A DNA stretch of 64,000 nt from Candidatus Multivorans sp. (GTDB lineage: Bacteria; Acidobacteriota; Thermoanaerobaculia; Multivoradales; Multivoraceae). Positions 27,259 to 61,772 of the stretch are shown in pieces. Position 1 is the stretch's first letter, and every line of letters starts with the position of its first letter. The stretch lies in NCBI GenBank assembly GCA_965262355.1, contig OZ253534.1, positions 3,023,670 to 3,087,669 on the forward strand, read 5' to 3'. Both the position numbers and the translations under genes were made by a program. The notes below the pieces were generated by a model. It was not told the origin of the DNA and did no database searches. It saw nothing but the letters and a program-made list of their open reading frames with translations.

Positions 27259-28434
27259 TCACGGCCTTGCGTTCCTCGCGGCTTCCAGGACGCCGAAGTC
27301 GGCGCCGTCTGCCGCGGCGGCCCTCTGTGCCTGGCGTTCGATGACCAGCTTGTAGCGGCCGTCGCGCACCGCGGCGCCGCGCCAGAACTGGCCGGCGCTG
27401 CTCCAGAAGAGCTGGCGAGGCGCCGTGTCTTCGCCGTCGAAGAGAACCGGACCGACGTCGATGCCGTCGAAGGGCTGGTCCGGCTTCGCCTCGCCGCCGG
27501 CCATGGCCAGGACGGTGGGCATCACGTCGAGGGTGGAGGTGAGGGCGGCGGACGTTGAGCCGGGAGCGATCCGGCCCGGCATCGCGGCGATCGAGGGAAC
27601 GCGTTGACCGCCCTCCCAGTAGCTGGCCTTGTAGCCGCGGAGCGCTCCATTGGAGCCCTCCCGGGTCGCGCCGTTGTCGGAGAAGAACCAGACCAGCGTG
27701 TTCTCGGAAAGACCGTGCTGCTCGAGGGCGTCGAGAACGCGGCCGACGCCGTCGTCCATCGACTCGACCATCTCGCGGTAGGCGCGTTTCCGGTCGGTCA
27801 CTGAGCCGACGCCCGGGAACTGGTCATCGCCGGCGTAGCGTTCCGCCGGGTCGCGGGGACCCTGGTAGGGGTAGTGCGGGGCGTGGTGCGCCAGATACAG
27901 GAAGAACGGCTCGTCCCGGTGCTCGGCGATGAAGCTCTCGGCGTGGTCGCCGATCAGATCGGTGAGGTAGCCGTCCTCGTCTTCGAGCGTCTCGCCGTTC
28001 CACCAGTCGGGGCGACCCATGCGGTCGACGTGGGACTGGTAGTCGATGTTGCCGCTCACGAAGCCGCGGAACTCGTCGAAACCGTGCAGAGGCGGCTTGA
28101 ACTGCGGCAGGTAGCCGAGGTGCCACTTGCCAGATACCGCGGTCGCGTAGCCGAGTTCCCGGAAGCCCTCGGCGATCGTGTGGGCCTCGCTGTCGATGCC
28201 CTGGTGGTAGAGCGGACTATCGGAGTTGGCGAGCAGGACGGCGGGAACTCCCGCCCGGTGCTGGTACCGGCCCGTCACCAGGCCGGCGATGACGTTGGGC
28301 CGGGCGCCGGCATCGGCTGCCGAGTCGACCTCGCCTGGCGGCGCGCCGCAGCCGGCGACCACGGCGCCGGCGAGTGCGGCGGTGCGGGTTCCGTGAATCG
28401 CTCTCATTGCCCAGTAACCCGTGATGCGCATCAA
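27259..28434 (-). CDS. Sulfatase-family lipoprotein lacking the catalytic C-x-P-S-R segment (in-frame internal deletion, probably inactive)
   Basis: Lipobox VVAGC; ...ARPNVI | AGLVTGRYQHRAG...: the about 45 residues that normally carry ADDLG and CxPSR are absent; the downstream sulfatase core is intact (GKWHLG, FFLYLAHHAPH, FFSDNG). Confidence 0.6.
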   Translation of the reverse strand: MMRITGYWAMRAIHGTRTAALAGAVVAGCGAPPGEVDSAADAGARPNVIAGLVTGRYQHRAGVPAVLLANSDSPLYHQGIDSEAHTIAEGFRELGYATAVSGKWHLGYLPQFKPPLHGFDEFRGFVSGNIDYQSHVDRMGRPDWWNGETLEDEDGYLTDLIGDHAESFIAEHRDEPFFLYLAHHAPHYPYQGPRDPAERYAGDDQFPGVGSVTDRKRAYREMVESMDDGVGRVLDALEQHGLSENTLVWFFSDNGATREGSNGALRGYKASYWEGGQRVPSIAAMPGRIAPGSTSAALTSTLDVMPTVLAMAGGEAKPDQPFDGIDVGPVLFDGEDTAPRQLFWSSAGQFWRGAAVRDGRYKLVIERQAQRAAAADGADFGVLEAARNARP

Positions 28435-35429: not shown

Positions 35430-37457
35430 ATGAGAACCGAGTCGTACCGCCTCTTGCCGCTACCGCTGCTGCTACTGCTCTCCGGGGCTGCTTGCAGTGG
35501 CCCGTCGGCGGAGCAGGCGGCCCTGGACGCGGCCATCGACGGGTCGATCGTCTCCAGGACCGAGGAGCGGCCCGCCTGCCGGGACGCCACGCCGCTGCGC
35601 CAGGCGCTCTTCGGCGACCTCCACGTCCACACCAGTTTCTCGTTCGACGCGGCGGCCAACAGCACCGGCGCCACGCCAGAGGACGCCTACCGCTTCGCCA
35701 AGGGCGAGGCGATCCCGTTCTTTCCGATCGGCGCCGGCGGCGAACCCGAGGGCAGCATCTCCATCGACCGGCCGCTCGACTTCGTCGCCGTCACCGACCA
35801 CGGAGAGTTCCTGGGCGAGCGCCGCCTGTGCCGGGACCCGGAGTCGCCCCGGTACGACACGGAGTTCTGTCGCGAAGCCCGCACCAGCGAGCGCCGGGGG
35901 ATGCAGATGCTGGGAGCGGTGATCACGACCGAGACCCCGCGCCGGATCGCCGAGGTGTGCGGCGAATCGGGCGAGTTGTGCCTCGAGTGGGCCAAGAGCC
36001 CGTGGCAGAAGATCATCGAGGCGGCCGAAGACGCGTACGACCGCACCGAGGAATGCAGCTTCACCAGCTTCGTCGGCTACGAGTACACGGGCACCCCCGG
36101 GATCTCCAACTACCATCGCAACGTCATCTTCCGGGGCTCGGAGGTGCCGGACCTGCCGGTCTCCTACATCGACGCGCCGACCGACAGTCAGCTCTGGCAG
36201 GGGCTGGACGCGGTCTGCGGCGAGGGCAGCGCAGACCCAAACTGCGACTACCTGACCATTCCTCACAACAGCAACCTGGCGAACGGCCGGATGGGCCCGT
36301 ACCGCGGTCTGGAGGCGACGCTCGAGAACCGCCGCGCCTATTCGCGCAAGCGCCTGGAGCGGGAGCCGATCATCGAGATCTTTCAGCACAAGGGCGGCTC
36401 CGAGTGCATCAACGGCCTGTCATCAGTCTTCGGCGAACCGGACGAGCTCTGCGACGTCGAGGCGGTGCGGGTGATGGGACGCGAGGAGGTCTTCAACGCC
36501 CTGGACCAGACGGAGCAGCGCATGGTGACCACGGAATGCGCCCCCGGTGAGAACGGGAGCGCCGGCATGGTCGGCGCCGGCTGCGTCGCCCGGTCGGACT
36601 ATGTGCGCTCCGCTTTGCTCGAGGGCCTGGAAGAGGAGATGGCGACCGGCCTCAACCCGGCCAAGCTCGGAATCATCGCGTCGACGGATACGCACACGGC
36701 GACGCCGGGGGCGGTGGCGGAAGAAGACTGGCGCGGCGCGGTCTCCGTCGAGTCGACGCCCGAGGAGCGCCTCCAACCGGGTCTCCTGACCAGCGGCATC
36801 GACGGCAACCCCGGCGGTCTGGCCGGCGTCTGGGCGGTCGAGAACTCGCGCGACGCGATCTTCGACGCCATGAAACGCCGCGAAGTGTTCGGGACCTCGG
36901 GCCCGCGGATCAAGCCCCGCTTCTTCGGCGGCTGGAACTTCTCGGCGAACCTCTGCGACCAGCCCGACCTGATCGAGCAGGCGTACACCGCCGGCGTCCC
37001 GATGGGCGGCGATCTGCCAGAGACGGCCACCGGCGCGGCGCCGAGCTTCCTCGCCTTCGCCGCTCGCGACCCGGCGGACGGCGCCGGGCTTCTCCAGCAA
37101 CTCCAGCTCATCAAGGGCTGGATCGACGCCGACGGAACCGGCCACTACGAGGTCATCCCGATCGCCGGCTCTCCCGACCACGGGGCAACCGTCGATCCTG
37201 TGAGCGGCGAGCAATCCGGCGCCGGCCACGACAGCCTCTGCACCGTCTACCGCGACGAGGAGTTCGATCCCGACCTCCACGCCTACTACTATCTTCGGGT
37301 GGTCGAGAACCCCAGCCTGCGGTGGAGCGTCCACGACTGCCTGCGTCTGGCGCCGGAAGCCCGTCCGGCGGTGTGCTCCGACGGTTCGTATCCTGAGGCG
37401 ATCCAGGAGATGGCCTGGACGTCGCCGATCTGGTACCGGCCGGGGGCGAGCGAGTGA
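35430..37457 (+). CDS. DUF3604-like (PHP-like metal-dependent hydrolase) lipoprotein
   Basis: Lipobox LLSGAAC; GDLHVHTSFSFDA, VAVTDHGEF, IPHNSN histidine motifs. Confidence 0.55.
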   Translation: MRTESYRLLPLPLLLLLSGAACSGPSAEQAALDAAIDGSIVSRTEERPACRDATPLRQALFGDLHVHTSFSFDAAANSTGATPEDAYRFAKGEAIPFFPIGAGGEPEGSISIDRPLDFVAVTDHGEFLGERRLCRDPESPRYDTEFCREARTSERRGMQMLGAVITTETPRRIAEVCGESGELCLEWAKSPWQKIIEAAEDAYDRTEECSFTSFVGYEYTGTPGISNYHRNVIFRGSEVPDLPVSYIDAPTDSQLWQGLDAVCGEGSADPNCDYLTIPHNSNLANGRMGPYRGLEATLENRRAYSRKRLEREPIIEIFQHKGGSECINGLSSVFGEPDELCDVEAVRVMGREEVFNALDQTEQRMVTTECAPGENGSAGMVGAGCVARSDYVRSALLEGLEEEMATGLNPAKLGIIASTDTHTATPGAVAEEDWRGAVSVESTPEERLQPGLLTSGIDGNPGGLAGVWAVENSRDAIFDAMKRREVFGTSGPRIKPRFFGGWNFSANLCDQPDLIEQAYTAGVPMGGDLPETATGAAPSFLAFAARDPADGAGLLQQLQLIKGWIDADGTGHYEVIPIAGSPDHGATVDPVSGEQSGAGHDSLCTVYRDEEFDPDLHAYYYLRVVENPSLRWSVHDCLRLAPEARPAVCSDGSYPEAIQEMAWTSPIWYRPGASE

Positions 37458-39738: not shown

Positions 39739-41853
39739 CTACACGTCAGGCTTGCCGGTGATCAGGACGTTGCCGAGCACGGCGGGATCGGCTTCGAGCT
39801 CATCATCGCCCGCCGGGAACTCGTTCATCTGCATGATGTAGGTCACGATGTCGAGATAGGTCTGCCGTGGCAGGCTTTCCGGTTGATCGGTCGGCATGGT
39901 GGTGCGGATCGCCTCGAACAGCTCGTGGACCGTCTTGTTCCCCCACAGGAACTGGAAGCTCACGCCGACCAGGCTCGCCGAGTTGCTGCCGCCGCCGAGG
40001 TCCTCGGCGTGGCAGGAGGCGCAGTTCTCGCGGTAGGCCGCGGCGCCCAGTTGCGCCTGCTCGGCGGTGTAGACGCCGTCCCAGACCGTCGCGGCGGCCT
40101 CGGTCGCCGGCGCGACCTGGTCTGCCACGGTGGTGCGGGTCCTCTCCGCCTCGACCCGCGCCGCGGCCGGGAGCGCGAAGACGTGGATCGAGTTGCCGTT
40201 GTTCGGGCGGCGGATGTGGGGGATGAGATCCCGCGGCACCATCGTTGCCCAACTGGCGCCTCCGGTTCCCACCGGGATCGCGATGAACTGGCGGCCGCCT
40301 GCGAGGTAGGACACCGGGAAGCCCTGGGCGGAGGTGGGCAGCCGCGTCTGCCAGAGGACCTTGCCGGTCCTGGCATCGTAGGCGTACACGTTGCGGTCGT
40401 AGTCGCCCGCGAACATCACTCCGCCCGCCGTCGACATGGCGGCGGTGTTGATCGGTGACTCGGTGCGGTGGCGCCACATGATGTCGCCCTCGACCACGTC
40501 GATCACCAGCATCTCACCCAGGTTGCCCCCCGAGTAGGGGTGCAGGGTATTGACGCGCTTGACCGGACCCGCGCCGCCGCCGCCGAGGACGTGTTCGACG
40601 GGGCCGAACGTGGCCAGCTCGCAGTTCATCGTCATCGGGATGTAGAGAGCCCGGGTGTTCGGGTCGTACGACATCGCCCGCCAGCTCTTGAACCCCGACG
40701 TGCTCGGGCACATGTTGATCTCGACGCCGATCTCCGGGACCATCCCCGGCCGGTACGTCACTTCGCCTGTCTCGCGATCGACGTCGACGATGTTCTGATA
40801 GCCGACATCGATGGCGCCGAGGAACTCGCCGGTCTCCCGGTCGAGCTGCCAGAGGATGCCGAGTTTGCCCATCTTGAAGAGCTGCTTCCTGCCATCGACA
40901 TCGATGAGGAGCGACTCGAACACCTCGTCCATGTCGTGGGTCTCGCCGGGCAGGTACTGGTAGTACCAGAGCAGCTCGCCGGTATCGGGGTCGAGCGCCA
41001 GACTCGAGTTCGTGTAGAGCGCGTCGCCGTCGGTGCCGCGCACCGCCCGGGCCCAGGGTTTGGCCTGGGAGGTTGCCCAGTAGACGATGTTCAGCTCCGG
41101 GTCGTAGCTGCCGGCGATCCAGGCGTCGCTGCCGGCGCGGAAACGGAGCGGCAGATCGCCCCAGGTGTCGCCGCCGGGTTCTCCGGGACGCGCGATCGTC
41201 GAGGTGCGCCAGATCTCTTCGCCGGTTGCCGGGTCGTGGCCGGTGATGAAGCAGACGTCGTCCTTGTAGCGGCCGCACCCGGTGATGCCGGTGACCAGCT
41301 TGCCGTTGGCGATGATGGGGCCGGCGGAGTAGTGGTAGCCGAGGGCCGGGTCGGCGGTCTGCGTCTCCCAGACCGGTTTCCCGTTGCGCGCGTCGAGCGC
41401 CAGGATCGTCGCCCGGCTGGTGGCGGCGAAGATGCGGTCGCCGAAGATCGCGATGTTCTTCTGCACCCCGCTGCCGAAGGCCCCCGCGCCATCGCCGGAG
41501 ACTTCAGGCCGGTACTCCCAGATCAGGTCGCCGTTGGCGGCGTCCAGGGCCTGGACGACGTTGCCCGGACTCGGCAGGTACATGACCCCGCCGTGGATCA
41601 GCGGCGCCGTCTCCTGCGGGCCGGTGTCGTCCATCGCCCACGCCCACACCAGTTGGAGCTGGCCGACGTTTTCGGTCGTGATCTGGTCGAGCGGGCTGTA
41701 GCCCCAGGCGTTCTGCGTTCCCCGCCAGTGGAGCCACTGCCCCGGTTCCGGGTTGCGCAGCATCTCCTGGGTGACCGGCACGAAATCGGTCTCCTGGGCG
41801 CCGGCGCCGGCGCCCAGGAGCAGCACCGCGGCAAGACAGTTCAGGCACTTCAT
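39739..41853 (-). CDS. PQQ-dependent alcohol dehydrogenase, quinohemoprotein type (C-terminal cytochrome c)
   Basis: Signal peptide; 8-bladed PQQ propeller motifs; C-terminal CASCH heme-binding site. Confidence 0.8.
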   Translation of the reverse strand: MKCLNCLAAVLLLGAGAGAQETDFVPVTQEMLRNPEPGQWLHWRGTQNAWGYSPLDQITTENVGQLQLVWAWAMDDTGPQETAPLIHGGVMYLPSPGNVVQALDAANGDLIWEYRPEVSGDGAGAFGSGVQKNIAIFGDRIFAATSRATILALDARNGKPVWETQTADPALGYHYSAGPIIANGKLVTGITGCGRYKDDVCFITGHDPATGEEIWRTSTIARPGEPGGDTWGDLPLRFRAGSDAWIAGSYDPELNIVYWATSQAKPWARAVRGTDGDALYTNSSLALDPDTGELLWYYQYLPGETHDMDEVFESLLIDVDGRKQLFKMGKLGILWQLDRETGEFLGAIDVGYQNIVDVDRETGEVTYRPGMVPEIGVEINMCPSTSGFKSWRAMSYDPNTRALYIPMTMNCELATFGPVEHVLGGGGAGPVKRVNTLHPYSGGNLGEMLVIDVVEGDIMWRHRTESPINTAAMSTAGGVMFAGDYDRNVYAYDARTGKVLWQTRLPTSAQGFPVSYLAGGRQFIAIPVGTGGASWATMVPRDLIPHIRRPNNGNSIHVFALPAAARVEAERTRTTVADQVAPATEAAATVWDGVYTAEQAQLGAAAYRENCASCHAEDLGGGSNSASLVGVSFQFLWGNKTVHELFEAIRTTMPTDQPESLPRQTYLDIVTYIMQMNEFPAGDDELEADPAVLGNVLITGKPDV

Positions 41854-44064: not shown

Positions 44065-45855
44065 GTGAAGAGTGCTCGCCCGCTCGAATGCGGGTTGGTG
44101 ATCGTGACCCTTACCCTGAGCCTCGGGTTCAGCGCGGCATTGCCAGCCCAGGACGCGGCGTCGACGTTCGTGCCCGTGACGGACGAAATGCTGCAGAACC
44201 CGCCGGCGTCGGAGTGGCTGATGTTCCGCCGGACGCTGGACAGTTGGGGCTACAGCCCCCTGGACCAGGTCGACCGGACGAACGTGGAGCGGCTGAGCCT
44301 GGTCTGGGCTCGCGAAATCGGCGTGGGGACGTCCGAGATCACTCCCCTGGCGTATGACGGCGTGCTCTACATTCCCTCGGTCGACGACGTGATCGAGGCG
44401 GTGGACTCGGTGACCGGCGACTTCATCTGGCGCTACACGCGCGAGCTGCCGGAAGGCCTCTACGCCCAGGTCGGCTTCAATGCGAAGAACAACCGGAACA
44501 TCGCGATCTACGACCGGCTGATCCTGAACAACAGCGACGACAACTACGCCTTCGCGCTGGACGCCGAGACCGGCGAGATGGTCTGGGAGACGCAGATCCT
44601 GGACTGGCAGGTCAATCCCGCCACGCACAGTTCGGGTCCGATCGTCGCCGGCGGCCGGGTGGTTTCCGGAAGGAGCTGCCGGCCGTGGGGCGGCCCGGAA
44701 TCCTGCATCATGATCGCGCTCGACGCGCTGACCGGGAAGGAACTCTGGCGGCAACGCACCATGCCGGCGCCCGGCGAGCCCGGCGACGAGACCTGGGGCG
44801 ACGTGCCCTTCGAAAAGCGGCGCCACGTTGGCACCTGGATGGTGCCCAGCTACGACCCGGAGCTCGAACTCATCTACTTCGGCACCGCCGTCACTTCGCC
44901 GGCGCCGAAGTTCATGCTCGGCGGAGTGGACCTGACCCACCTCTACCACAACTCGACCCTGGCGCTCGAGGCCGACACCGGTGAGATCCGCTGGTACTTC
45001 CAGCACCTGAACGACCACTGGGACCTGGATCATCCGTTCGAGCGGATCCTGGTCGACCTCCCGGTGTCGCCCGATCCGGAGGCGGTGCGCTGGATCCGGT
45101 CGGACCTGGCGCCCGGAGAGACGCGCAAGGTGATGACCGGAATCCCCGGCAAGACCGGCCTCGTCTACACGCTGGACCGTGAAACCGGCGAGTTCCTCTG
45201 GGCCAGGCCGACGGTGCCGCAGAACGTGGTCGTCGACATCGACGAAACCACGGGGCGTGCGGTGGAGAACACCGAGATCATCTTCACCGAGCTGGAGCAG
45301 GAGATGCTCGTGTGCCCGAGCTGGGCCGGCGGCAAGGACTGGGAGACCGGCGCCTACAGCCCCCTGACCCAGACGATGTACTACCCGTTGCGCAACCAGT
45401 GCGCGAGGATGCTGGTGACCGGGGATGTCGAGAGCCCGCGCGCCCAGGCGATGGAGCAGCAGGTCGCGATCTACAACCTGGCCGCGGACCACATCCTGGC
45501 GCCCGGCGAGGAGTACCTCGGCACGGTCTACGCGATCTCGGCCATCACAGGCGAGACGAAGTGGCTGTTCGAGACCGAGGCCTCGACCTACTCGGTCGTC
45601 GCCACCGGCGGCGGCCTGATCTTCGGCGGCGATGCGAGCGGGAGCTTCCGCGCCTTCGACCACGAGACCGGCGAGGTTCTGTGGGAGGTGAACCTCGGGG
45701 CCCCGGCGATGGGTTACCCGATCTCCTACGCCGTCGCCGGGCGCCAGTTCGTGGCCATCTCGACCGGGCCCGGAAGTCTCAGGAACACTCCCGAGGGCGC
45801 CGCGCGCGCCCGCGGCGGCAACCTGTACGTCTTCGCTTTGCCGCAGAGCCGCTGA
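44065..45855 (+). CDS. PQQ-dependent dehydrogenase, methanol/ethanol family (no heme domain)
   Basis: Signal peptide; PQQ propeller repeats; HWDLD motif at the position of the MxaF/XoxF WDYA/WDYD. Confidence 0.75.
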   Translation: MKSARPLECGLVIVTLTLSLGFSAALPAQDAASTFVPVTDEMLQNPPASEWLMFRRTLDSWGYSPLDQVDRTNVERLSLVWAREIGVGTSEITPLAYDGVLYIPSVDDVIEAVDSVTGDFIWRYTRELPEGLYAQVGFNAKNNRNIAIYDRLILNNSDDNYAFALDAETGEMVWETQILDWQVNPATHSSGPIVAGGRVVSGRSCRPWGGPESCIMIALDALTGKELWRQRTMPAPGEPGDETWGDVPFEKRRHVGTWMVPSYDPELELIYFGTAVTSPAPKFMLGGVDLTHLYHNSTLALEADTGEIRWYFQHLNDHWDLDHPFERILVDLPVSPDPEAVRWIRSDLAPGETRKVMTGIPGKTGLVYTLDRETGEFLWARPTVPQNVVVDIDETTGRAVENTEIIFTELEQEMLVCPSWAGGKDWETGAYSPLTQTMYYPLRNQCARMLVTGDVESPRAQAMEQQVAIYNLAADHILAPGEEYLGTVYAISAITGETKWLFETEASTYSVVATGGGLIFGGDASGSFRAFDHETGEVLWEVNLGAPAMGYPISYAVAGRQFVAISTGPGSLRNTPEGAARARGGNLYVFALPQSR

Positions 45856-47725: not shown

Positions 47726-48532
47726 ATGACCACTCGACTTCCGCAACGCTACGGCGGCGCCGCCCTGATTACAGGCGCCTCCAGCGGTATCGGGGAGGCC
47801 TACGCGCGGCGGCTTGCCGATGAGGGCATGGAACTGGTGCTGGTCGCACGGCGCACCGACCGGCTCGAGAAGCTGGCGCGGGAACTGCGCTCGGCCTCGG
47901 ATGTGACGGTCCATGTCGTTCCCCAGGACCTTGGGGAGCGCGCCGGCCCGCGGCTTGTCTTCGAGGCCGTCGACGATCTCGGGATCGAGGTCGGCATGCT
48001 GGTGTCGAACGCCGGCTTCGGCACCTACGGGCCCTTTGTCGAGCAGGATCTCGAGCTTCAACTTCAGATCGTCGAGGTCAACAACCGGGCGGCCGTGGGG
48101 CTGGCAACGATTCTCGTTCCGCGGCTCGTCGAGCGCGGTCGCGGCGCGCTGATCTTCCTGTCGAGCACGGCGGCCTACCAGCCGGTGGCGTTCGAAGCGG
48201 TCTACGGAGCGTCGAAGGCATTCAACCTGATGTTCGGCGAAGCGCTCTGGGCGGAGCTCTCGGAGCACGGAATCGACGTCATCGTGCTGTCGCCGGGATT
48301 CACGCCCACCGAGTACCAGAAGAAGGCCGGCATGGGCGAGCCCGAGCCGGTGACCGGTTGGACGAGCCCCGAGCAGGTGGTGGACGCCAGCCTGCGCCGG
48401 CTCGGCCGCGCCTCCTCGGTCGTACCGGGCTGGCGCAACCGTGTCGTCATCTTCCTGATGCGCATCCTGACGCGGCGCGCGGCGGCGCGCCTGACCTACC
48501 GGGTCAACAAACCGGCCAGCCGATCAGGGTAG
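47726..48532 (+). CDS. SDR-family oxidoreductase
   Basis: TGASSGIG, YGASK. Confidence 0.85.
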   Translation: MTTRLPQRYGGAALITGASSGIGEAYARRLADEGMELVLVARRTDRLEKLARELRSASDVTVHVVPQDLGERAGPRLVFEAVDDLGIEVGMLVSNAGFGTYGPFVEQDLELQLQIVEVNNRAAVGLATILVPRLVERGRGALIFLSSTAAYQPVAFEAVYGASKAFNLMFGEALWAELSEHGIDVIVLSPGFTPTEYQKKAGMGEPEPVTGWTSPEQVVDASLRRLGRASSVVPGWRNRVVIFLMRILTRRAAARLTYRVNKPASRSG

Positions 48533-49236
48533 AGCAGCGCCGGCGCAGAGCCCTGGCTCGCGGTGGCTTCGCTCCCCTCGCGAAGCCCGGCGTACCTGTC
48601 CTCGAGGAACTCCTCGAGTTCGTCGGTATCGAAGTTGAACGGCCCCATGCCGCCCTTGTAGGCGATCGTGCCGCCCTTGTCGATCACGTAGATGCGCTCG
48701 GGCCAACCGGCGTAGCAGGCGTTGGCGGTGTTGGCGATGTCGTCCACCAGGGTCCGTGTCTTGACATCCATCGCCTCGACGAACTCCTTGGCGAGGTCCA
48801 TGCGGTCAACCATCGTCTTCGGCTGATTGAAGATCAGTTCGTTGGTCACGTTCTTGGGCGCTTGCCACTCGTCGTCGGGGTGGGCTTCCTTGATGTAGAT
48901 GTAGCTGAACTCGACCGCCGGGCTCCACTCTTCTCGCACCTCTTCGAGCCGGGCCACACGGGCCCGGAAGGGCGGTCACGTGTAGCTGCCGAAGACGAGC
49001 ACGAGGGGCTTGGCAGCCCACAGGGCGGAGAGGCGCATCTGATCGCCGCCGACCAGGTCCAAGGGCAGGTCGGGGGCGAAGTCGCCGACCTGGAGGATGC
49101 CCTCCGTGCGAATGTCGTACTCGTTGAGCCTGATGAGCCCGCGCTCCGCCAGGAAGCGGTAGGTCTTGAAGCCGCCCCATCCGAGGACACCGAGGATGAC
49201 CAGACTGACAACGACTATCGTGACCCAGCGTTTCAT
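48496..49236 (-). CDS. Iodothyronine-deiodinase-family thioredoxin-fold selenoprotein, membrane-anchored. In-frame TGA = Sec at 48976-48978. The ORF track splits it into two ORFs
   Basis: Translation across the TGA gives LVLVFGSYT-U-PPFRARV (deiodinase active site FGSCTUPPF); downstream family motifs FSYIYIKEAHPDDEW and YAGWPERIYVIDKGGTIAYKGGMGP; N-terminal TM anchor; both ORFs share a frame. Confidence 0.75.
48949..48975 (-). promoter_or_regulatory. Candidate bacterial SECIS hairpin immediately 3' of the UGA
   Basis: mRNA: UGA-ccgcccuu-CCGGGCC-cgugu-GGCCCGG; 7-bp GC stem, GU-containing apical loop, 8 nt after UGA. Confidence 0.5.
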
Positions 49237-49283
49237 GGCGGACTCTCCTCCTAGTATGGGGCGGAAACTATAGCGGAACCGCG

Positions 49284-50465
49284 CTAGGCGGCCTTTCCGA
49301 CCACGGAGACGCAGCTCACGCAGTTGCCGGGAAGTCCTCCGAGATTGTGGGTCAGTCCGATCCGCGGGTCGGCGACCTGCCGTTCGCCGGCCTCGCCGCG
49401 CAGTTGTAGCCAGATCTCGTACATCATGCGCAGGCCGCTGGCGCCGATCGGGTGGCCGAAGCTCTTGAGTCCGCCATCGGAATTGATCGGCTGGCGACCG
49501 TCGAGTTGGAAGCGGCCGTCCAGGCAGTCTTTCCAGGCCTGGCCGCGCTCGGAGAATCCGAGGTCCTCCATCAGCACCAGCTCGGTCGGAGTAAAACAGT
49601 CGTGGACCTCCGCCAGACTGATTTCCTCGCGCGGGTTCGTGATGCCGGCCTGCCGGTAGGCGTCCTCGGCGCTGGCCACAACCTCGGGGAAGGTGGTGAA
49701 GTCGTAGTCCGGTTTCTTGACCCCTTCGGCCGGCCCGACGACGAATCCGACGCCCTTCAAGAGAAGCGGGTCGTCGCAGTAGCGGTGGGCGTCCTCGGCC
49801 CGGCAGAGGACCGCGGCGGCAGCGCCGTCGCTCACTCCCGAGCAGTCGAAGAGCCCGAGCTTGCCGGCGATCGGAGGAGAGGACCTGATCCGTTCCAAAG
49901 GCACCTCGCGCCGGAACTGGGCCTTGGGGTTCTTGGCCCCATTGGCGTGGTTCTTGTACGCGATCCGGGACAGCACGTCCTTCAGCGTGTCTTCGCTGAC
50001 GCCGTACTTCTCGGCGTAGGCCGGCACGATCATGGAGAACGCCGCCGGCGGCGTCATCTCGAGTTCGGTGCCGTCTGTCGTCGGATTCAGATCGAAGAGC
50101 CCGGAGTAGCCCGAGTCCTTCAACTTCTCGACACCGAGGGCCATGACGATGTCGTAGGCGCCGCTGGCGACCGCATACGCCGCGTTGCGCAGAGCTTCGC
50201 TACCGGTGGCGCAGAAGTTCTCCACGTGGGTGACCGGCTTGTAGCGAATCTTCAACGGCTCGGCGAGGAGCAGACCCGAAGCCAGGGTGCCGGCGCTGCC
50301 GAGCCAGAAGGCGTCGATCTCGGCGAGATCGAGCCCCGCCGAAACGAGTGCTTCTTGCGACGCCGTCAGGGAGAGATCGCCGATGCTCTGGTCCCAGTGC
50401 TCCCCGAAGGAGGTGCACCCCATCCCGATGATCGCGACCCGATCCTTGATTCCATGACTCGGCAT
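49284..50465 (-). CDS. SCP-x-type thiolase / lipid-transfer-protein-like thiolase
   Basis: VAIIGMGCTSFGE; thiolase-fold C-terminal GGLKSFGHPIGASG. Confidence 0.8.
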   Translation of the reverse strand: MPSHGIKDRVAIIGMGCTSFGEHWDQSIGDLSLTASQEALVSAGLDLAEIDAFWLGSAGTLASGLLLAEPLKIRYKPVTHVENFCATGSEALRNAAYAVASGAYDIVMALGVEKLKDSGYSGLFDLNPTTDGTELEMTPPAAFSMIVPAYAEKYGVSEDTLKDVLSRIAYKNHANGAKNPKAQFRREVPLERIRSSPPIAGKLGLFDCSGVSDGAAAAVLCRAEDAHRYCDDPLLLKGVGFVVGPAEGVKKPDYDFTTFPEVVASAEDAYRQAGITNPREEISLAEVHDCFTPTELVLMEDLGFSERGQAWKDCLDGRFQLDGRQPINSDGGLKSFGHPIGASGLRMMYEIWLQLRGEAGERQVADPRIGLTHNLGGLPGNCVSCVSVVGKAA

Positions 50466-51906: not shown

Positions 51907-54498
51907 CTAGCGATCCCCGACCCAGAACGGACTCGACCAGGCCCGGCCGCCGTCGAGTTGGGTTACCCGAACATAGTAGTAGTCGCCGTCCGCAACGTCC
52001 TCGAAGTCCACGAACTGAACTTCCCGGTCGAGGGCGCCGCTTGGATCGACCGCCTGCAGGTTGAGGCGGTCCAGGTGAGGTCCGACCGGCAGCTCATGAT
52101 GGAGGCGGCCGGCCTCAAGCTCGCCGAGCCGGACTTCGAAGTCGGCGGCGGCGATCCGGGCGGCGGGCCTGACCGCCGGTGCGAAGCCGAACTCCGTGGT
52201 CGCCTCGAGGCGGAAGCGGAGCCGGGTTTGAGGACCGGCGCCATCGAGTTCGACCAGGAACGAGTCGGCGCGGCCGCGAGTCAGGATGCGGAACCTGGCG
52301 CCGTCCCGCGACCCTTGATCGAGCCGCGAGACTTGATCGCGAAGCGGGTTGTCGAGGCCGGTCGGTGCGATGCCGATAAGGCGCGCTCCCTCGACTTCGA
52401 GGGTACCTTCCCACTGTCGGTAGCCGCGGGGGTTGTCGAGCTGCTCGCCGAAGACCTCGGAAGAGGATTCGAAGGACACCTGCAGCCAAGTGTGCGGCTT
52501 GAGCGGTTCGGCAAGGTAGTGCTTGCTGAGGATGATGTCGCCGTTGCGCACCACGTCGATTCGATCGATCGGCGAAGTGCCGTTGACCTTCACCCGGATC
52601 TCGCGCCGCCCGGCGCTCTCCTGCCGGCGCCCCATGCCGGCGCCGTTCAGAGTCGCCTCGAGCAGAATGCGTTGCCCGGAAGTGGCGTAGCACGAGAGGT
52701 TACGCAGCGCCGAGAACACGGCGTCTCTGCTGAGTTCGGGGGCCAGCACGGCGGCCAGACCCCCGGGCTGGGAGACGCTCGAGAGGGGTCCCGGCGCCAG
52801 TCCCGGCTTGGCATGGTGGTCGTCCGAGGCGGCCACGAAGCCGAGTTCGAAGCCGCTCTTGAGGTAGCGGTTGGCAAACCACTCGAAGCTGCCGTGAACC
52901 GAGTAGAGCTCGACCAGCTTTTCCAGCTCGGGATCGCTGCGGGTCCAGTCGCCGGCGCGATGGGCGTGCGGAATGACCAGGACCTCGTCGGGATCGTAGA
53001 TCGCATGCAGTTGGCGATAGAGATCGGGCAGCCGGGTCGCTTCCTGAACGGAGACTCGACGGCTCCAGGGATCGAGAAAGAAGACGTTGTGGTGCCCGCC
53101 ACGGTTGCTGAACGCTGTCCATTCGTAGCCCAGGATGCCGATGAAGCGACCCTCTTCGCTGAAGTCGCGGGTCAGCTCCCCGAGGTGAAGCCACTCGCTG
53201 TCGTCCATCCAGATGTCGTGCTCCGAGAGCGTCGCGAAGTCGAGGCGGGCGTCTCGGCTGGCGTACTCGAAGAACGCCCGCGCCGAGCCGGTTCCCTCCG
53301 CCAGTCCGGTGTGGCCGTGGGTGTCGCCCCAGAGAATGCGCTCCGCCGGTTCATGCTCGACCCGAATCGGGTTGCTGGTCGCGCGCAACCGGCCATCGAC
53401 CGAGCGCACCTCGAGGCGGTGGACTCCGGGCGCTTCGATCGCCAATTGGTCGACCACCGTCAGGGCATCGTGGCCGGCCTCGACCCTCGCCATGGCGTCC
53501 CCGTTCAGGAACACCTCGTAGGCGGGAATCGGCCCGCTGGCTCGATTGATGGCCCGGTCTTCGCTTCGCACCGTGATCTCGAAGGCCTCGCCGGCGCCGA
53601 CGACGGATGGCGCCAGGATCCGAACGGCGTGGACTGCCGCCTCGCCGACGACCTCGATTCCCGGCAACTCGGGAGTCAGGTACGTCCCGCTGCCGTCGAT
53701 GTCCACGTAGACCGGCAGCAGCAGCTCGTCACTGCTGAATGCCGGCACCGCGAGACGGCTCGATTCGCCGCCGTAGGTGAACGTGACCGTTTCCCCCGGT
53801 TTGAGCGCGGCCCCCTCAAGCCGGAAGCCGGGCAGCGGACGTTTGCCTGGGACGTGCGAGTGGACACCGTTCCATTCCACCTGGACGGGCTCGAACAGAG
53901 CCGAGGGGTTGGAACTGCGCACCGAGACGAAGTTCTCGGCGGCCGGATCCTGGTTCTGGGGTCGGGTTTCGTTACCGGTCCCCGACTTGCCGACCAGGAA
54001 TCCTCCGCCGAGCGCGAGGCCGCGGGCGCCGGCGGTGTACGTCTGCTCGACGATGACCCGGGTGCCGGAGACCAGGGGGCTGGCCGTGGTCATGCGCAAC
54101 GCGCCCATTGCCTGCGGATCCGACTCCTTCAACTCGAGTTCCCGCACGTACTGATCGAACCGCTCCACTTGTGTCTGAAGGTACAGATCGATAGCTGGCG
54201 GCAGGCGAACTTCACCGCCGTCCGCTTCGGCGAAGCGAACCAGGGCCACCGTGAGGGGTAGATCCGCCGGCAAGACGCCTCCGTCGAGGGCGAAGCTGTT
54301 GGCCCAGTCCCACAAGGTGTCGGTGCGGCGGAAGATGTTGTGTGCCGACGTGGGCTCGCGCTCGATGTCCGCGATCAGCTTCTCGACCCGGTCGCGAAGG
54401 TCTTCGGCAGTCTGGACGGACTCGGGCGCCGGAGAGCAGCCAATCCATAGCAGTGCCAGCGCGACCAGCACGGCCGCGCTTTGACGCCGGGACGGCAT
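51907..54498 (-). CDS. Large DUF3604-like (PHP-like metal hydrolase) lipoprotein, paralog A (863 aa)
   Basis: Lipobox WIGCS; ILWGDTHGHTGLAEG, LSEHD, GGHHNVFF, VIPHAHRAGDW, ASDDHH; C-terminal YYYVRVTQLDGGRAWSSPFWVG. Confidence 0.6.
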   Translation of the reverse strand: MPSRRQSAAVLVALALLWIGCSPAPESVQTAEDLRDRVEKLIADIEREPTSAHNIFRRTDTLWDWANSFALDGGVLPADLPLTVALVRFAEADGGEVRLPPAIDLYLQTQVERFDQYVRELELKESDPQAMGALRMTTASPLVSGTRVIVEQTYTAGARGLALGGGFLVGKSGTGNETRPQNQDPAAENFVSVRSSNPSALFEPVQVEWNGVHSHVPGKRPLPGFRLEGAALKPGETVTFTYGGESSRLAVPAFSSDELLLPVYVDIDGSGTYLTPELPGIEVVGEAAVHAVRILAPSVVGAGEAFEITVRSEDRAINRASGPIPAYEVFLNGDAMARVEAGHDALTVVDQLAIEAPGVHRLEVRSVDGRLRATSNPIRVEHEPAERILWGDTHGHTGLAEGTGSARAFFEYASRDARLDFATLSEHDIWMDDSEWLHLGELTRDFSEEGRFIGILGYEWTAFSNRGGHHNVFFLDPWSRRVSVQEATRLPDLYRQLHAIYDPDEVLVIPHAHRAGDWTRSDPELEKLVELYSVHGSFEWFANRYLKSGFELGFVAASDDHHAKPGLAPGPLSSVSQPGGLAAVLAPELSRDAVFSALRNLSCYATSGQRILLEATLNGAGMGRRQESAGRREIRVKVNGTSPIDRIDVVRNGDIILSKHYLAEPLKPHTWLQVSFESSSEVFGEQLDNPRGYRQWEGTLEVEGARLIGIAPTGLDNPLRDQVSRLDQGSRDGARFRILTRGRADSFLVELDGAGPQTRLRFRLEATTEFGFAPAVRPAARIAAADFEVRLGELEAGRLHHELPVGPHLDRLNLQAVDPSGALDREVQFVDFEDVADGDYYYVRVTQLDGGRAWSSPFWVGDR

Positions 54499-55475: not shown

Positions 55476-58082
55476 ATGCGGAGTGTTCCTCTCAAAAGAG
55501 TTCTCCTGGCTGTGTGCGCCGTCGTTGTCGCCTGCGCGCCGCCGCCGGGTGACGACTATCTGGACGCGGATCTGAGATTGCGGGTGGAAGCGCTCAAGGT
55601 GGAGGTCGAAGCGGCGCCGGCGACCCGGGAGAACGCGGTGCAGCGCGCCCGAGTGTTCTGGGAGTGGTTGAACGCCTACGCGCTCACCGGTCGAACCCTG
55701 CCCATGGACAGCACCACGGCGGTGATGCGGGTCATGAGCCGGAACGAGCTCAGCCGGGGCATCTCGCCAGCAATCCTCAGGACTCTCGACGACAAGATCC
55801 ACGAACTGGCGATTCGCGACGCGCGCCCGGACGCCATCGGCGACGTTACGGCCAAGGCCGACGAGCTATTGGTCGCCGGCAGTTGGGCGCAACTCGAACA
55901 GACCTATACCGTCGGCTCGATGGGGATGGCCACCGGAGGCTCGTTCCTTCTCGGCGCCCAGATCATGGCCGACCAGGCGTCGATGCAGCACGAGGATCCT
56001 GCGGCGGACAACTACGTTTCGGTCCGTTCGTCGAACGCCGATGCACGTTGGGAGAAGCCCCGCATTCCTCTGTCGGGGAAGCACGGCGGCTTCAAGGACG
56101 AAGCGGAGATGGTGGTCTTCCGGCTCGCGGAAGGCACGCTCGAGCACGGCGACACGGTGACCTTCACCTACGGTGACAGGTCGCAGGGCTCCTCGGGCCT
56201 GAGGTTGCAGACGCTGACGACCGAGAAGCTGGTGCTGCCGATCTACGTCGACCTTACGGGCGCCGGGGTCTTCTTTACGCCTCGCTGGCCGCATCACGAG
56301 ATCGTCGGCCGGAACGAAGTCGAGTCGTTGGCGGTCTTCGCTCCTTCCGTGGTCGCGGCGAGCGAGGAGATCGACTTGGTGGTGCGCAGCGAGGATCGGC
56401 ACTTCAACCGCTCGCGCGGTGTCACCGTTCAGGAGTACGAAGTGCTGCTAGACGGTGAGGCCGTCGCCACGGTACCCGCGGGTTCGGAGTCGGCGGCCGG
56501 CGTCGAAGGCTTGTCCGTGAGCAGCCCGAGGGTCGCCCGCTTCGTCGTCCGTTCGGCGGACGGCCGGCTCGAAGCCCGGAGCAATCCGGTCTGGGTCGAG
56601 AGCGCCCCCGAACAGCGAATCTATTGGGGCGAGCTCCACGGCCACGCCGGCTTCGCGGAAGGTCAGGGCGGCGGCGAGCAGTTCTATCGCTACGCCCGCG
56701 ACGACGCGCGGCTCGACTTCGTTGCCCTCACCGATCACGACTCGTCGATGGACGACTTCGAGTGGCGGTACCTGCAGGAGCTCAGCCGGGACTTCAACCG
56801 GGAAGGAGAGTTCCTCGCCATTCTCGGCTACGAGTGGAGCGCCACCCGGGATCTCGGAGGGCACCACAACGTCTTCTTCCGCTCCCGCGATCGTTCGCGG
56901 GTGCCGAATCAGGAGGCGCCGACCCTGGCCCAGATGTACGAGCGTCTGCGGAGCGAGAACCAGCCGTCCGAGGTGCTGGTCATTCCGCATGCCCACCAGG
57001 CTGGCGACTGGAACCAGAGTCCCGGGGATCTCCAGTCGCTGGTGGAGATCATGTCTCAGCACGGGACCTTCGAGTGGTTCGGCAACCGGTACCTGCAGAA
57101 CGGTTTCGAGGTCGGCTTCATCGCGGCCTCGGACGATCATCGCGCCAAGCCGGGCTACAACCCCGGGCTCTTCTTCTCTCCCCACGTTCAGGGCCCCGGC
57201 CTGGCGGCGGCCGTGGCGGCCGAGAAGACCACGGACGCGGTCTTCGACGCTCTACGCTCACGCCGCGCATACGCCACTTCGGGCCAGAGAATCCTGCTCT
57301 CGGCCACCCTGAACGGCGAGCCCATGGGAACGCGGCAGCCGTACACAGAGCGGCGCGAGTTCTCCTGCCGGGTGTCGGGTACTTCTCCCATCGACCGCAT
57401 CGACCTGATCAAGAACGGGCGCGTCCTGCGCAGCCGCAGCTACCTGTCGGCGCCGCTCGAATCGAGTGCCTGGGTGCAGATCGGGTTCGAGTCGTCTTCG
57501 GAGGTCTTCGCTCCCGACCGCGACAATCCGCGCGTCTACAGGGTCTGGTCGGGCGTACTCGAGGTGGCAGGGGCCCGGCTTCTCGGCGTTGAGTCTCCGG
57601 GTCTGAAGAACCCCTATCTCGAGTGGGCCGAGATCGACCCGGAGGAGCCGCAGCGGGTGCGCTTCTACACCGAGACCCGCGGCCGGATGAACACGCTCTT
57701 GCTTCGTCTGAGCGGCGCCAGCAGCTCAACGCGGGTCACGCTGCATCTGGATGCGGCGCGGGAGAACGGCTTTGCGCCGCCGCTCGTTCGGCAGCCGATG
57801 GACATTCCCGCCGCCGAAGTGGCGTTCCAACTCGACGATCTCGAGGACAGCCGCATCGAGCACGTGCTGCCGGTCGGCCGCCATCTCGATCGTCTCAGCC
57901 TGCAGGTGATCGACGCGGATGCCGCCCTCGACCGGGAGTTCGACTTCGTCGATCTCGGGTCGACTGCACCGGGCGACTACTACTACTTCCGAGTGACACA
58001 GCTCGACGGCGGTCAGGCATGGTCGAGCCCCTTCTGGGTCGGCCGCCGCGATGCCGGCGACGGCGCTGCCGCGGGCGGTTAG
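55476..58082 (+). CDS. Large DUF3604-like lipoprotein, paralog B (868 aa)
   Basis: Lipobox VVACA; about 55-60% identical to A through the His-rich core. Confidence 0.6.
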   Translation: MRSVPLKRVLLAVCAVVVACAPPPGDDYLDADLRLRVEALKVEVEAAPATRENAVQRARVFWEWLNAYALTGRTLPMDSTTAVMRVMSRNELSRGISPAILRTLDDKIHELAIRDARPDAIGDVTAKADELLVAGSWAQLEQTYTVGSMGMATGGSFLLGAQIMADQASMQHEDPAADNYVSVRSSNADARWEKPRIPLSGKHGGFKDEAEMVVFRLAEGTLEHGDTVTFTYGDRSQGSSGLRLQTLTTEKLVLPIYVDLTGAGVFFTPRWPHHEIVGRNEVESLAVFAPSVVAASEEIDLVVRSEDRHFNRSRGVTVQEYEVLLDGEAVATVPAGSESAAGVEGLSVSSPRVARFVVRSADGRLEARSNPVWVESAPEQRIYWGELHGHAGFAEGQGGGEQFYRYARDDARLDFVALTDHDSSMDDFEWRYLQELSRDFNREGEFLAILGYEWSATRDLGGHHNVFFRSRDRSRVPNQEAPTLAQMYERLRSENQPSEVLVIPHAHQAGDWNQSPGDLQSLVEIMSQHGTFEWFGNRYLQNGFEVGFIAASDDHRAKPGYNPGLFFSPHVQGPGLAAAVAAEKTTDAVFDALRSRRAYATSGQRILLSATLNGEPMGTRQPYTERREFSCRVSGTSPIDRIDLIKNGRVLRSRSYLSAPLESSAWVQIGFESSSEVFAPDRDNPRVYRVWSGVLEVAGARLLGVESPGLKNPYLEWAEIDPEEPQRVRFYTETRGRMNTLLLRLSGASSSTRVTLHLDAARENGFAPPLVRQPMDIPAAEVAFQLDDLEDSRIEHVLPVGRHLDRLSLQVIDADAALDREFDFVDLGSTAPGDYYYFRVTQLDGGQAWSSPFWVGRRDAGDGAAAGG

Positions 58083-58116
58083 GCGAGGATCGCGAGGCGT
58101 CGCGGGCGGAGAACGG

Positions 58117-59697
58117 ATGTCGCTGAGGGAGTCCTACTGGCCGGCCGATACCAGCCAGCCGGTTCTCGAGTGGACGGTGGGCAGGCTCTTGCACGAGGCC
58201 GCAGCGGCGGCCCCCGAAGGGATTTCCCTGGTCGAGGGCGTTCCCGACCCCGCGTCGCGCCGTTGCTGGACCTTCGCGCAGTTGCTTGCCGACGCCGAGC
58301 ACGTCGCGCGGCGTCTGCTGCGGTACTTCGAGCCCGGGGAACGGCTCGCGGTCTGGGCTCCGAATCTGCCCGAATGGGTGTTGGTCGAACTCGGCGCCGC
58401 CCTCGCCGGGCTCACCCTCGTGACCGTCAACCCCGCCTACCGCGGCAGCGAACTCGAGTACGTCCTCGGCCAGTCGCGCGCCGCCGGTCTGTTCCTGGTG
58501 CGCGACCATCGCGGCAACTCGATGGCCGCTTCGCTGGACGAGGTGCGCCCGCGGTTGGAACACCTGAGAAACGTCTTCTTCTTCGAGGAGTGGGACGACT
58601 TCATGGGCGGCTCGCCGGGCGACCGCGAGCTACCTCAGGTGAGCCCCGAGGCGCCGGTCCAGATTCAGTACACCTCGGGCACCACCGGCGTTCCCAAGGG
58701 CGCGTTGCTGCACCACCGCGGCATGGTCAACAACGCCCGATTCGTCGCGCAGCGCGGCCGGTTGGGCAAGGTGTGGGTGAATGCGGTACCGCTGTTCCAC
58801 TCGAGCGGCGGCGGCCTGGCGATCTTCGGCCCGCTGTTTACGAAGGCGACGGTGGTTCTGGTCGAACAGTTCGACCCGGGCCTGATCCTGGAACTGATCG
58901 AGAGCGAGCGGGTGACCTTCCTTCCCGGCGTGCCGACCATGCTGATCAAAATCCTGGAGCATCCCGACTTCGAGCGCCGCGACCTCTCTTCGCTGACCAG
59001 CGTGTGCTCGGGCGGCACCTCCGTGCCACCCGAGTTGGTGCGCCGGATCGAAGACTCGCTGGGGGTCAGCTTCTCGATCTCCTACGGCCAGACGGAGGCG
59101 TCACCAGGGGTCACGCAGAACTATCCGGACGACAGCATCGAGGACAAGGCGGTGACGGCAGGGCCGCCTCTACCCCAGACCGAGGTCAAGATGGTCGACT
59201 CCGAGACCGGCGAGGTTCTCCCCGTCGGCGAAGCCGGTGAAATCTGCACGCGCGGTTACCTCGTCATGCACGGTTACTTCGAGATGCCGGAGGCGACGGC
59301 GGCCGCGATCGACGACCAGGGGTGGTTGCACACCGGCGACATCGGATCGATGGACGAGCGCGGCTACTGTAGAATTCGCGGGCGGCTGAAGGAGATGATC
59401 ATCCGCGGCGGCGAGAACATCTACCCCAAGGAGATCGAGGATGTGCTCCTCGAACGCGCCGACATCGCCGAGGCGGCGGTGATCGGCGTTCCCGATCCGA
59501 AGTGGGGCGAGCAGGTGGCGGCGGTGATTCGACTGGCCGGGGACGAGCGCCCCAGTGAGGAAGATCTCTTCGACTACGTGAGGGAACGCTTGGCGCCCTA
59601 CAAGACGCCGAAGTTGTGGCGCTTCATCGACGAGTTTCCGCTCAACGCCTCGGGCAAGATCCTCAAGACGGATCTGGCCGCGACCCTGTCCCTGTAG
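58117..59697 (+). CDS. AMP-dependent acyl-CoA synthetase/ligase
   Basis: YTSGTTGVPKGA AMP-binding motif, C-terminal GKILK. Confidence 0.85.
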   Translation: MSLRESYWPADTSQPVLEWTVGRLLHEAAAAAPEGISLVEGVPDPASRRCWTFAQLLADAEHVARRLLRYFEPGERLAVWAPNLPEWVLVELGAALAGLTLVTVNPAYRGSELEYVLGQSRAAGLFLVRDHRGNSMAASLDEVRPRLEHLRNVFFFEEWDDFMGGSPGDRELPQVSPEAPVQIQYTSGTTGVPKGALLHHRGMVNNARFVAQRGRLGKVWVNAVPLFHSSGGGLAIFGPLFTKATVVLVEQFDPGLILELIESERVTFLPGVPTMLIKILEHPDFERRDLSSLTSVCSGGTSVPPELVRRIEDSLGVSFSISYGQTEASPGVTQNYPDDSIEDKAVTAGPPLPQTEVKMVDSETGEVLPVGEAGEICTRGYLVMHGYFEMPEATAAAIDDQGWLHTGDIGSMDERGYCRIRGRLKEMIIRGGENIYPKEIEDVLLERADIAEAAVIGVPDPKWGEQVAAVIRLAGDERPSEEDLFDYVRERLAPYKTPKLWRFIDEFPLNASGKILKTDLAATLSL

Positions 59698-61283: not shown

Positions 61284-61772
61284 CTAACTCGCGTCTTCTG
61301 CTGTCGATGGCATGAAGAGAACCAGGGGCCGGGCGACGAAGACGAGGCGATCCTCTCCGGCCAGGCGTACACGCACTTCTCGCGCCAGCAGGGTTCCGCG
61401 GCTTTTTTGCTGAACGTCGACCAACCGGACGCTGGCCTGCAGGCGGGCGCCGGCCGGCACCGGGGCGAGGAAACGAACCCGGTCGATGCCGTAGTTCGTC
61501 GAATTGCCGAATCCCGTGACCCGGAAGTCGGCGCCGTCCGGGAGGTTGGCGAACAGGCTCAGGGTGAGCATGCCGTGGGCGATAGGCCGCCCGAAGGGAC
61601 TCTCGCGGCGCGACCGCTCGACATCGACGTGGATCCAGTTGTGGTCTCCCGAGAGTTCGGCGAACGCGTCGATCATCGCCTGCTTCACTTCCAGGGGCTC
61701 GCCCCAGGGGCCGAACTCCTCGCTGATCTCGGCGCGGAGGGCGTCGATGTCGTCGTAGCGGATCGTCCTCAT
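61284..61772 (-). CDS. MaoC-like (R)-specific enoyl-CoA hydratase (hot-dog fold)
   Basis: LSGDHNWIHVDVERS, PIAHGMLT; start overlaps paralog C stop. Confidence 0.8.
   Translation of the reverse strand: MRTIRYDDIDALRAEISEEFGPWGEPLEVKQAMIDAFAELSGDHNWIHVDVERSRRESPFGRPIAHGMLTLSLFANLPDGADFRVTGFGNSTNYGIDRVRFLAPVPAGARLQASVRLVDVQQKSRGTLLAREVRVRLAGEDRLVFVARPLVLFMPSTAEDAS

Follow-up and report, generated by a model that had tools for sequence, protein, structure and literature searches.

In a 64-kb window of Candidatus Multivorans DNA (the whole stretch that was analysed), the minus strand at positions 48496–49236 carries a new member of the deiodinase-like selenoprotein family known since 2005. Conventional gene calls present this locus as two fragments separated by a TGA codon. 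The sequence evidence makes it very probable that there is one gene here, encoding a 246-amino-acid thioredoxin-fold enzyme of the iodothyronine deiodinase family whose UGA codon directs the insertion of selenocysteine (Sec) through the usual bacterial pathway. The reading is carried by the conservation of the TGA and of both flanking halves in every orthologue collected, by cysteine codons at the same position in distant homologues, by a profile match that runs across the TGA without a break, and by a downstream hairpin with compensatory changes.

One reading frame across an in-frame TGA

Two adjacent open reading frames (ORFs) on the minus strand, 48976–49236 and 48496–48957, lie in a single frame and are separated by the TGA and six codons (PPFRAR), after which the second ORF begins with GTG. 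A preliminary description made from the letters alone had proposed joining the two into a protein of 246 residues with the active site FGSYT-U-PPF. Translation gives exactly this product, and the motif aligns with those of the mammalian deiodinases Dio3 and Dio2. The principal features of the gene are as follows.

48496–49236, minus strand: deiodinase-like selenoprotein coding sequence, complete when read through, 246 amino acids with Sec at residue 86 (translation; Pfam T4_deiodinase match; tblastn alignments)
48976–48978, minus strand: in-frame TGA, predicted selenocysteine codon, residue 86 (TGA conservation in orthologues; Cys codons in distant homologues)
48970–48996, minus strand: active-site motif FGSYT-U-PPF, residues 81–89 (translation; alignment to mouse Dio3 and Dio2)
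49247–49252, minus strand: Shine-Dalgarno-like AGGAGG, 10 nt 5′ of the ATG at 49234–49236 (read from the sequence)
49171–49224, minus strand: N-terminal hydrophobic segment, residues 5–22, VTIVVVSLVILGVLGWGG, a probable single membrane anchor (read from the translation)

Only two TGA codons in the window are flanked on both sides by 50 stop-free codons of coding-type composition, defined as a third-position GC content (GC3) above 0.8, and the TGA at 48976–48978 is one of them, with a GC3 of 0.94 in the 50 codons upstream and 0.84 in the 50 downstream. The second of the two serves as an ordinary stop, with the next gene following it in frame, and this GC3-based scan of the 64 kb thus yields no further candidates for in-frame TGA recoding. 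The hydrophobic segment at residues 5–22 is probably an N-terminal membrane anchor. It is flanked by basic residues on both sides, which favours neither orientation, and the N-termini of the full-length homologues P0003 and P0007 resemble it.

The TGA and the codons that follow it are conserved across species

Relatives of the read-through protein are encoded in at least 587 species genomes in a scan that took one genome per species. The best 80 loci were kept, and together with one further locus (L081) and the window sequence they form a set of 82 orthologues. The tblastn alignments continue unbroken across the TGA in all 80 genomes, and TGA occupies this codon in 82 of 82 orthologues, down to approximately 40% identity, with both halves of the protein conserved in one frame. 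The nearest relatives among the best 80 loci, with 96%, 88% and 77% identity, come from other genomes of Candidatus Multivorans, the 96% identical orthologue residing on the complete chromosome OZ251997.1. OZ244786.1 and CBDCVC010000003.1 are further complete chromosomes on which the orthologue is found. TGA-bearing orthologues occur mostly in Acidobacteriota, with further examples in Planctomycetota, Polyangium, Methylomirabilota and Dehalococcoidia. The preliminary description had called bacterial Sec-containing deiodinase homologues rare, a view that these numbers do not sustain. It had also regarded Tyr in place of the usual Cys before Sec as unusual, but Tyr proves to be the commonest residue at position −2 from Sec (40 of the 82 orthologues, followed by Phe in 30 and Cys in 12).

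The four codons directly after the TGA (P-P-F-R) are informative because they fall outside both conventional ORFs. Across the orthologues these positions use 4, 4, 2 and 6 synonymous codons, respectively, and the sole amino acid change is one Pro-to-Leu replacement, which gives U-P-L-F. Synonymous change confined to a stretch outside both ORFs directly indicates that ribosomes read through the TGA in frame. The same observation bears on the possibility that the TGA is a true stop, leaving either a broken pseudogene or two small genes of 86 and 153 amino acids, the second starting at the GTG. Automatic gene callers do split the locus in this manner, and P0001 and many other database entries consist of the C-terminal fragment of 135–156 amino acids. 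However, a true stop would not account for the retention of TGA in all orthologues together with conserved halves, nor for the synonymous variation between the TGA and the GTG. A split would also divide one thioredoxin-fold domain in the midst of its active-site motif, inspection of the sequence reveals no Shine-Dalgarno sequence before the internal GTG, and the coding-type GC3 continues over the TGA. We therefore consider a genuine stop the least probable of the explanations weighed here, and highly improbable in absolute terms.

The recoding is local. TGA is the commonest ordinary stop codon in the window, where it terminates 18 of 37 genes, and for this reason a global reassignment of TGA (genetic code 4 or 25) is rejected.

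In more distant homologues the TGA is replaced by a cysteine codon. Five such loci (L082, L084, L085, L086 and L087) carry TGC or TGT in a motif of the FGSYTCPPF type, which is the outcome anticipated in the preliminary description when it suggested looking for orthologues with TGC in place of TGA. In one TGA-bearing orthologue, L081, the public translation from the Joint Genome Institute (P0003) has Trp at the Sec position (FGSCTWPPF). Because the DNA at this position is TGA, the Trp is evidently an annotation artefact, the contig having been translated with a code in which TGA specifies Trp. Given this pairing of Sec with Cys and the conservation of the codon, the TGA at 48976–48978 is almost certainly a selenocysteine codon, as judged from the sequences compared.

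The read-through protein belongs to the deiodinase family

For profile searches of the joined protein, Cys was put in place of the stop. The Pfam T4_deiodinase model (PF00837) matches with an E-value of 8.2e-33 and 114.1 bits against a cut-off of 27, pairing residues 49–213 with profile positions 74–235 of 237 in one stretch that spans the TGA. This was the first check recommended in the preliminary description, and its outcome places the protein in the family. Among sequences of solved structures, mouse Dio3 (4TR3, E-value 2.2e-24) and Dio2 (9H48, E-value 5e-22) align over the whole catalytic domain. The motif FGSYT-U-PPF pairs with FGSCT-C/U-PPF of Dio3 (FGSCTCPPF in 4TR3) and with FGSAT-C/U-PPF of Dio2 (FGSATCPPF in 9H48), and residue 86 falls on Dio3 Sec170.

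The best match in NCBIfam is NF038285 (deiodinase_rel, E-value 2e-48). The score of 165.7 bits is below the cut-off of 250, and only profile positions 177–338 of 347 are covered, the N-terminal half of that family having no counterpart in the window protein. For these two reasons the protein is placed outside NF038285 on the profile evidence. The peroxiredoxin-type models AhpC-TSA (PF00578, 26.7 bits with a cut-off of 26) and Redoxin match marginally. The AhpC-TSA score is far under that of the deiodinase model, a result more in line with common descent of the thioredoxin fold than with membership of PF00578.

The claim that the conserved blocks of the family are retained is likewise borne out by individual residues. 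S83, T85 and U86 correspond to Dio3 Ser167, Thr169 and Sec170, and a second cluster of matches lies in the following block.

48865–48897, minus strand: Y-I-K-E-A-H-P-D-D-E-W block, residues 114–124 (alignment to 4TR3 and 9H48)

Within it, Y114, E117, H119 and W124 align with Dio3 Tyr197, Glu200, His202 and Trp207. These Dio3 residues border the insertion that is specific to deiodinases and form part of a proposed proton relay (PMC11592359, the Dio2 structure paper against which the Dio3 numbering was cross-checked). Across 26 homologues there is no variation at E117, A118 or H119 and next to none at Y114 or W124.

Other residues important to the mammalian enzymes are not conserved. In the thyronine cleft and relay of Dio3, Arg275 (the substrate clamp), His219 and Phe258 correspond to Met197, Pro139 and Pro179 of the window protein. 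Dio3 Cys168 and Cys239, which we take to be the candidate resolving cysteines of that enzyme, are replaced by Tyr84 and Thr159. The only Cys of the window protein, C174, is restricted to the nearest clade, and the alignment of 26 homologues contains no conserved resolving Cys. With all five of these Dio3 residues replaced, thyroid hormone is a very unlikely substrate; the protein belongs to the deiodinase fold family, and the alignment does not support a function as a thyroid-hormone deiodinase.

A hairpin downstream of the UGA resembles a bacterial SECIS element

The preliminary description had noted a 7-bp GC hairpin beginning 8 nt after the UGA, the location expected for a bacterial selenocysteine insertion sequence (SECIS). 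Folding recovers this hairpin, whose stem consists of seven G:C pairs. The 45-nt stretch that contains it folds with −22.7 kcal/mol (z = −2.58), and equally good folds arise in 3 of 200 dinucleotide shuffles; z-scores relative to mononucleotide shuffles are uninformative in this 67% GC sequence.

48949–48967, minus strand: upper stem-loop of a putative bacterial SECIS, CCGGGCC / CGUGU / GGCCCGG, beginning 8 nt 3′ of the UGA (folding and covariation)
48935–48974, minus strand: extended predicted structure comprising a lower stem and the upper stem-loop (minimum-free-energy fold)

The lower stem of the extended structure is unsupported in the fold of the alignment. Other clades carry different hairpins in slightly shifted registers, including GGCGCUC-GGUC-GAGCGCC, GAAGAUC-GGC-GAUCUUC and CCACGUC-GGC-GACGUGG. 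Across the orthologues the loop starts 16–27 nt (mostly 19–25) from the U of the UGA, and in 96% of them G occupies the first or second position of the loop. Covariation was scored in two clades.

Clade of the window sequence: two-sided changes at 3 of 7 pairs; 82.9% of cells paired, and 13–51% with the partner slid; 0 of 500 shuffles reach the score
Clade with the GGUC loop: two-sided changes at 3 of 7 pairs; 88% of cells paired, and 31–65% with the partner slid; 0 of 500 shuffles reach the score

The Cys-containing homologues serve as a natural control: of five distinct Cys-form loci, four lack a hairpin of this kind. The fifth, L084 (P0007), has the motif FGGFT-C-PPF with a TGC codon and retains a perfect hairpin, GCCGCUC-GGUC-GAGCGGC, which suggests a recent switch from Sec to Cys that left the SECIS behind. 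We regard the hairpin as good supporting evidence for a SECIS element, not as proof of one.

Weighing the decoding of the UGA

Several observations count against the interpretation of this gene as a selenocysteine-containing enzyme of the deiodinase family. Domain, tRNA and Rfam scans, which covered the window, detected no selA, selB, selD or tRNA-Sec gene within the 64 kb, nor a tRNA gene of any kind, and Rfam gave no match in the window at the gathering threshold. When the hairpin region is compared with a null model in which synonymous codons are exchanged and the peptide is kept, the mean stem length is 6.4 bp versus 4.9 bp, the window sequence reaches a p of only ∼0.11, and p ≤ 0.05 is attained in just 17–20% of sequences. 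Because the excess over this null is modest, much of the hairpin pairing is built into the amino acid sequence; for this reason, and because the sequences are related, the codon-null test is weak. The case for the hairpin is based instead on the variety of hairpins among clades, on the covariation and on the comparison with Cys-form loci. The residue corresponding to His219, a proposed proton-relay residue of the mammalian enzyme, is Pro. The genes nearby offer no hint of a substrate, as the largest cluster of neighbours covers 14 of the 80 loci and none is conserved more widely. Finally, the bacterial deiodinase-like family is functionally uncharacterised.

The apparent lack of selenocysteine genes in the window would also fit decoding of the UGA by a system other than Sec insertion, either an opal-suppressor tRNA of the allo-tRNA type or a tRNA(Sec)-like tRNA(Cys), such that residue 86 would be Cys, Ser or another standard amino acid. 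Acidobacteria do possess allo-tRNAs that can act as suppressors, and tRNA(Cys) of the SelC* type may be an opal suppressor (PMC5389517); the rendering of the codon as Trp in P0003 might be taken to point in the same direction. However, SelC* genes have been reported from other phyla and not from Acidobacteria (PMC5389517), and the Trp in P0003 is an artefact over a genomic TGA. A strong general suppressor would be costly where TGA is the main ordinary stop, and it would need no hairpin, whereas every clade has a hairpin that shows compensatory changes and contains G in its apical loop. Moreover, the codon falls on the redox Cys in homologues and on Sec170 in Dio3, the classic Sec/Cys signature. 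Suppression is thus improbable, if slightly less so than a true stop. The trait of Sec decoding has been recorded in Acidobacteria (PMC1794560), and Candidatus Multivorans belongs to the class Thermoanaerobaculia of the Acidobacteriota.

On the selenoprotein interpretation, UGA codon 86 would not act as a stop but would be translated as selenocysteine in the manner standard for bacteria. The mRNA hairpin 8 nt after the UGA would function as the SECIS, recruiting SelB with GTP and Sec-tRNA(Sec) to the ribosome, and translation would then run on into the second half of the domain.

Proposed chemistry of the enzyme

The conserved residues suggest how such an enzyme might work. The selenolate of Sec86 would be the catalytic nucleophile, placed in the S83-x-T85-U86 motif and backed by Y114, E117, H119 and W124. 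It would attack an electrophilic atom of the substrate to form an oxidised Se-X or Se-OH intermediate, which would then be reduced by external thiols. External thiols would be needed because neither candidate resolving Cys of Dio3 is present, and the substrate would be something other than a thyronine, given the replacement of Arg275, His219 and Phe258.

What that substrate might be divides into two proposals, to which we give equal and less than even weight; what remains of the probability goes to some other chemistry. The first is reductive dehalogenation of a natural aromatic organohalide. The second is peroxide or thiol-disulfide redox chemistry, in which case the protein would still be a genuine selenoprotein but would act as a peroxiredoxin-like peroxidase or thiol-disulfide oxidoreductase and not as a dehalogenase. 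The weaker matches to AhpC-TSA and Redoxin are in keeping with a redox enzyme, as are the description of the Dio fold as peroxiredoxin-like (PMC11592359) and the loss of the thyronine-binding Arg275 and Phe258 and of the relay His219. In addition, those who discovered the family suggested a general redox function, since bacteria were not expected to have thyroid hormones (PMC1088965). Conversely, the deiodinase model scores 114 bits where peroxiredoxin models score 27, the insertion edges Y-I-x-E-A-H-P-x-D-x-W that distinguish deiodinases from peroxiredoxins are kept, and there is no conserved resolving Cys.

A more specific version of the dehalogenase proposal, rather unlikely as matters stand, is that the membrane-anchored U-P-P-F clade comprises selenium-dependent, corrinoid-independent reductive dehalogenases acting on natural iodo- and bromo-aromatics in sediments and soils. 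If true, deiodinase chemistry would have an equivalent in bacteria, possibly one ancestral to the animal enzymes. The dechlorinase of Dictyostelium that acts on the differentiation-inducing factor DIF was considered as a precedent for a deiodinase homologue of this kind and was dropped, because that enzyme is a glutathione S-transferase, distinct from the deiodinase homologue of Dictyostelium (PMC3205185).

Genomic neighbourhood

The genes bordering the selenoprotein gene are the following.

49284–50465, minus strand: thiolase-like (SCP-x type) gene, 47 bp from the selenoprotein start (Pfam Thiolase_C_1 and Thiolase_N)
47726–48532, plus strand: convergent short-chain dehydrogenase gene (Pfam adh_short; ORF coordinates)

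A ChsH2/DUF35-like gene (Pfam) also lies upstream on the same strand as the selenoprotein gene, and a simple scan found no promoter- or terminator-like site between these upstream genes and the selenoprotein gene. On the other side, the 3′ end of the short-chain dehydrogenase gene overlaps the non-conserved C-terminal tail of the selenoprotein by 37 bp (48496–48532). The preliminary description had placed the gene last in an operon of lipid or coenzyme A (CoA) type. The thiolase-like and DUF35-like genes do lie upstream on the same strand, but the association holds only for the closest relatives: adjacency to the thiolase and DUF35 genes is kept in L001 and L007 (at least 88% identity) and is gone at 77% identity. 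We therefore reject the idea that the gene is functionally tied to lipid or CoA metabolism.

The surrounding DNA forms a catabolic gene neighbourhood that includes four DUF3604 paralogues within 30 kb (35430–37457, 51907–54498, 55476–58082 and 61769–63991) and two pyrroloquinoline quinone (PQQ)-dependent dehydrogenases (39739–41853, which carries a cytochrome c domain, and 44065–45855). An acyl-CoA ligase-like gene is located at 58051–59697, and two short-chain dehydrogenases are present as well. Mobile or defence-type elements are represented by an IS110-family transposase on the minus strand at 785–2167 and an AbiEii-type toxin gene on the plus strand at 25495–26325. At 9158–15850 on the plus strand, a single open frame of 2230 codons includes an IS630-type-transposase-like region at residues 41–330 (helix-turn-helix and DDE_3 domains), the remainder corresponding to a giant surface protein with PKD, Big_9, cadherin and 3-keto-disaccharide-hydrolase domains. 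Either an insertion sequence has become joined in frame to the gene, or the frame is an artefact that arises because the longest ORF is listed.

Relationship to known deiodinase-like proteins

In 2005, Zhang, Fomenko and Gladyshev described bacterial deiodinase-like proteins in both Sec and Cys forms, accompanied by SECIS elements of the bacterial type, from the Sargasso Sea (PMC1088965). Deiodinase-like selenoproteins were counted again in the Global Ocean Sampling survey (PMC2398784), and reviews from 2022 and 2026 list their motif as UxxC (PMC9312934, PMC13188914). Like the window protein, the published examples match PF00837, pair UGA with Cys in homologues, possess a bacterial-type SECIS hairpin just downstream and are presumed to be redox proteins. 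However, they derive from marine plankton and, going by the motif given in the reviews, have a Cys three residues after Sec, whereas no such Cys is present in the window subfamily, in which the motif is U-P-P-F in every one of the 82 orthologues except for the single U-P-L-F. The window subfamily is also distinguished by its carriers, which are mainly Acidobacteriota including Candidatus Multivorans, and by its probable N-terminal hydrophobic anchor.

The mammalian Dio3 and Dio2 enzymes (4TR3, 4TR4 and 9H48) share with the window protein the FGSxT-U-PPF motif, the insertion-edge Tyr, Glu, His and Trp, the (Y/V)ERxYVI and GGxGP blocks, and a catalytic domain that aligns end to end. The predicted Sec nucleophile and the probable N-terminal membrane anchor are further points of likeness. 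In contrast, the mammalian SECIS is an element of the 3′ untranslated region, whereas the putative SECIS in the window is a hairpin within the coding region beside the UGA.

The Cys-containing bacterial proteins, such as P0017 (‘deiodinase-like protein [Opitutaceae bacterium]’) and P0019, have the same domain with the motif FGSYT-C-PPF and are 36–45% identical to the window protein. They differ in having a TGC or TGT codon, in lacking the hairpin in four of five cases, and in their signal-peptide-like N-termini. In L082 (positions 1523–5101), on an Opitutaceae-like contig, the Cys-type gene lies between two sulfatase genes, and on the contig of P0015, also Opitutaceae-like, it is directly downstream of one; both of these Cys-type proteins have signal-peptide-like N-termini. 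The adjacency to sulfatases may hint at the function of the Cys branch. In the window itself, the two sulfatase genes (21918–23588 and 27259–28434) and the selenoprotein gene are separated by over 20 kb.

A protein search of the whole library returned 2,288 clusters at 50% identity (E ≤ 0.001). Among the 149 best representatives of 50%-identity clusters that were retrieved (P0041–P0189), 95 are N-truncated gene calls, defined as beginning no more than 32 amino acids before the EAH motif. These calls fit a start placed just after the TGA, and it thus appears that public protein sets mis-annotate the Sec branch of the family systematically.

The practical consequence for annotation is that the gene should be called as one selenoprotein of 246 amino acids and not as two fragments. 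The finding neither opens nor settles a long-standing question. With it, Candidatus Multivorans and many further Acidobacteriota join the bacteria that carry a deiodinase-like enzyme of the Sec type, which implies a dependence on selenium in these organisms. As an abundant and well-conserved clade with a natural Cys-form control, this branch of the family offers a reasonable entry point for biochemistry.

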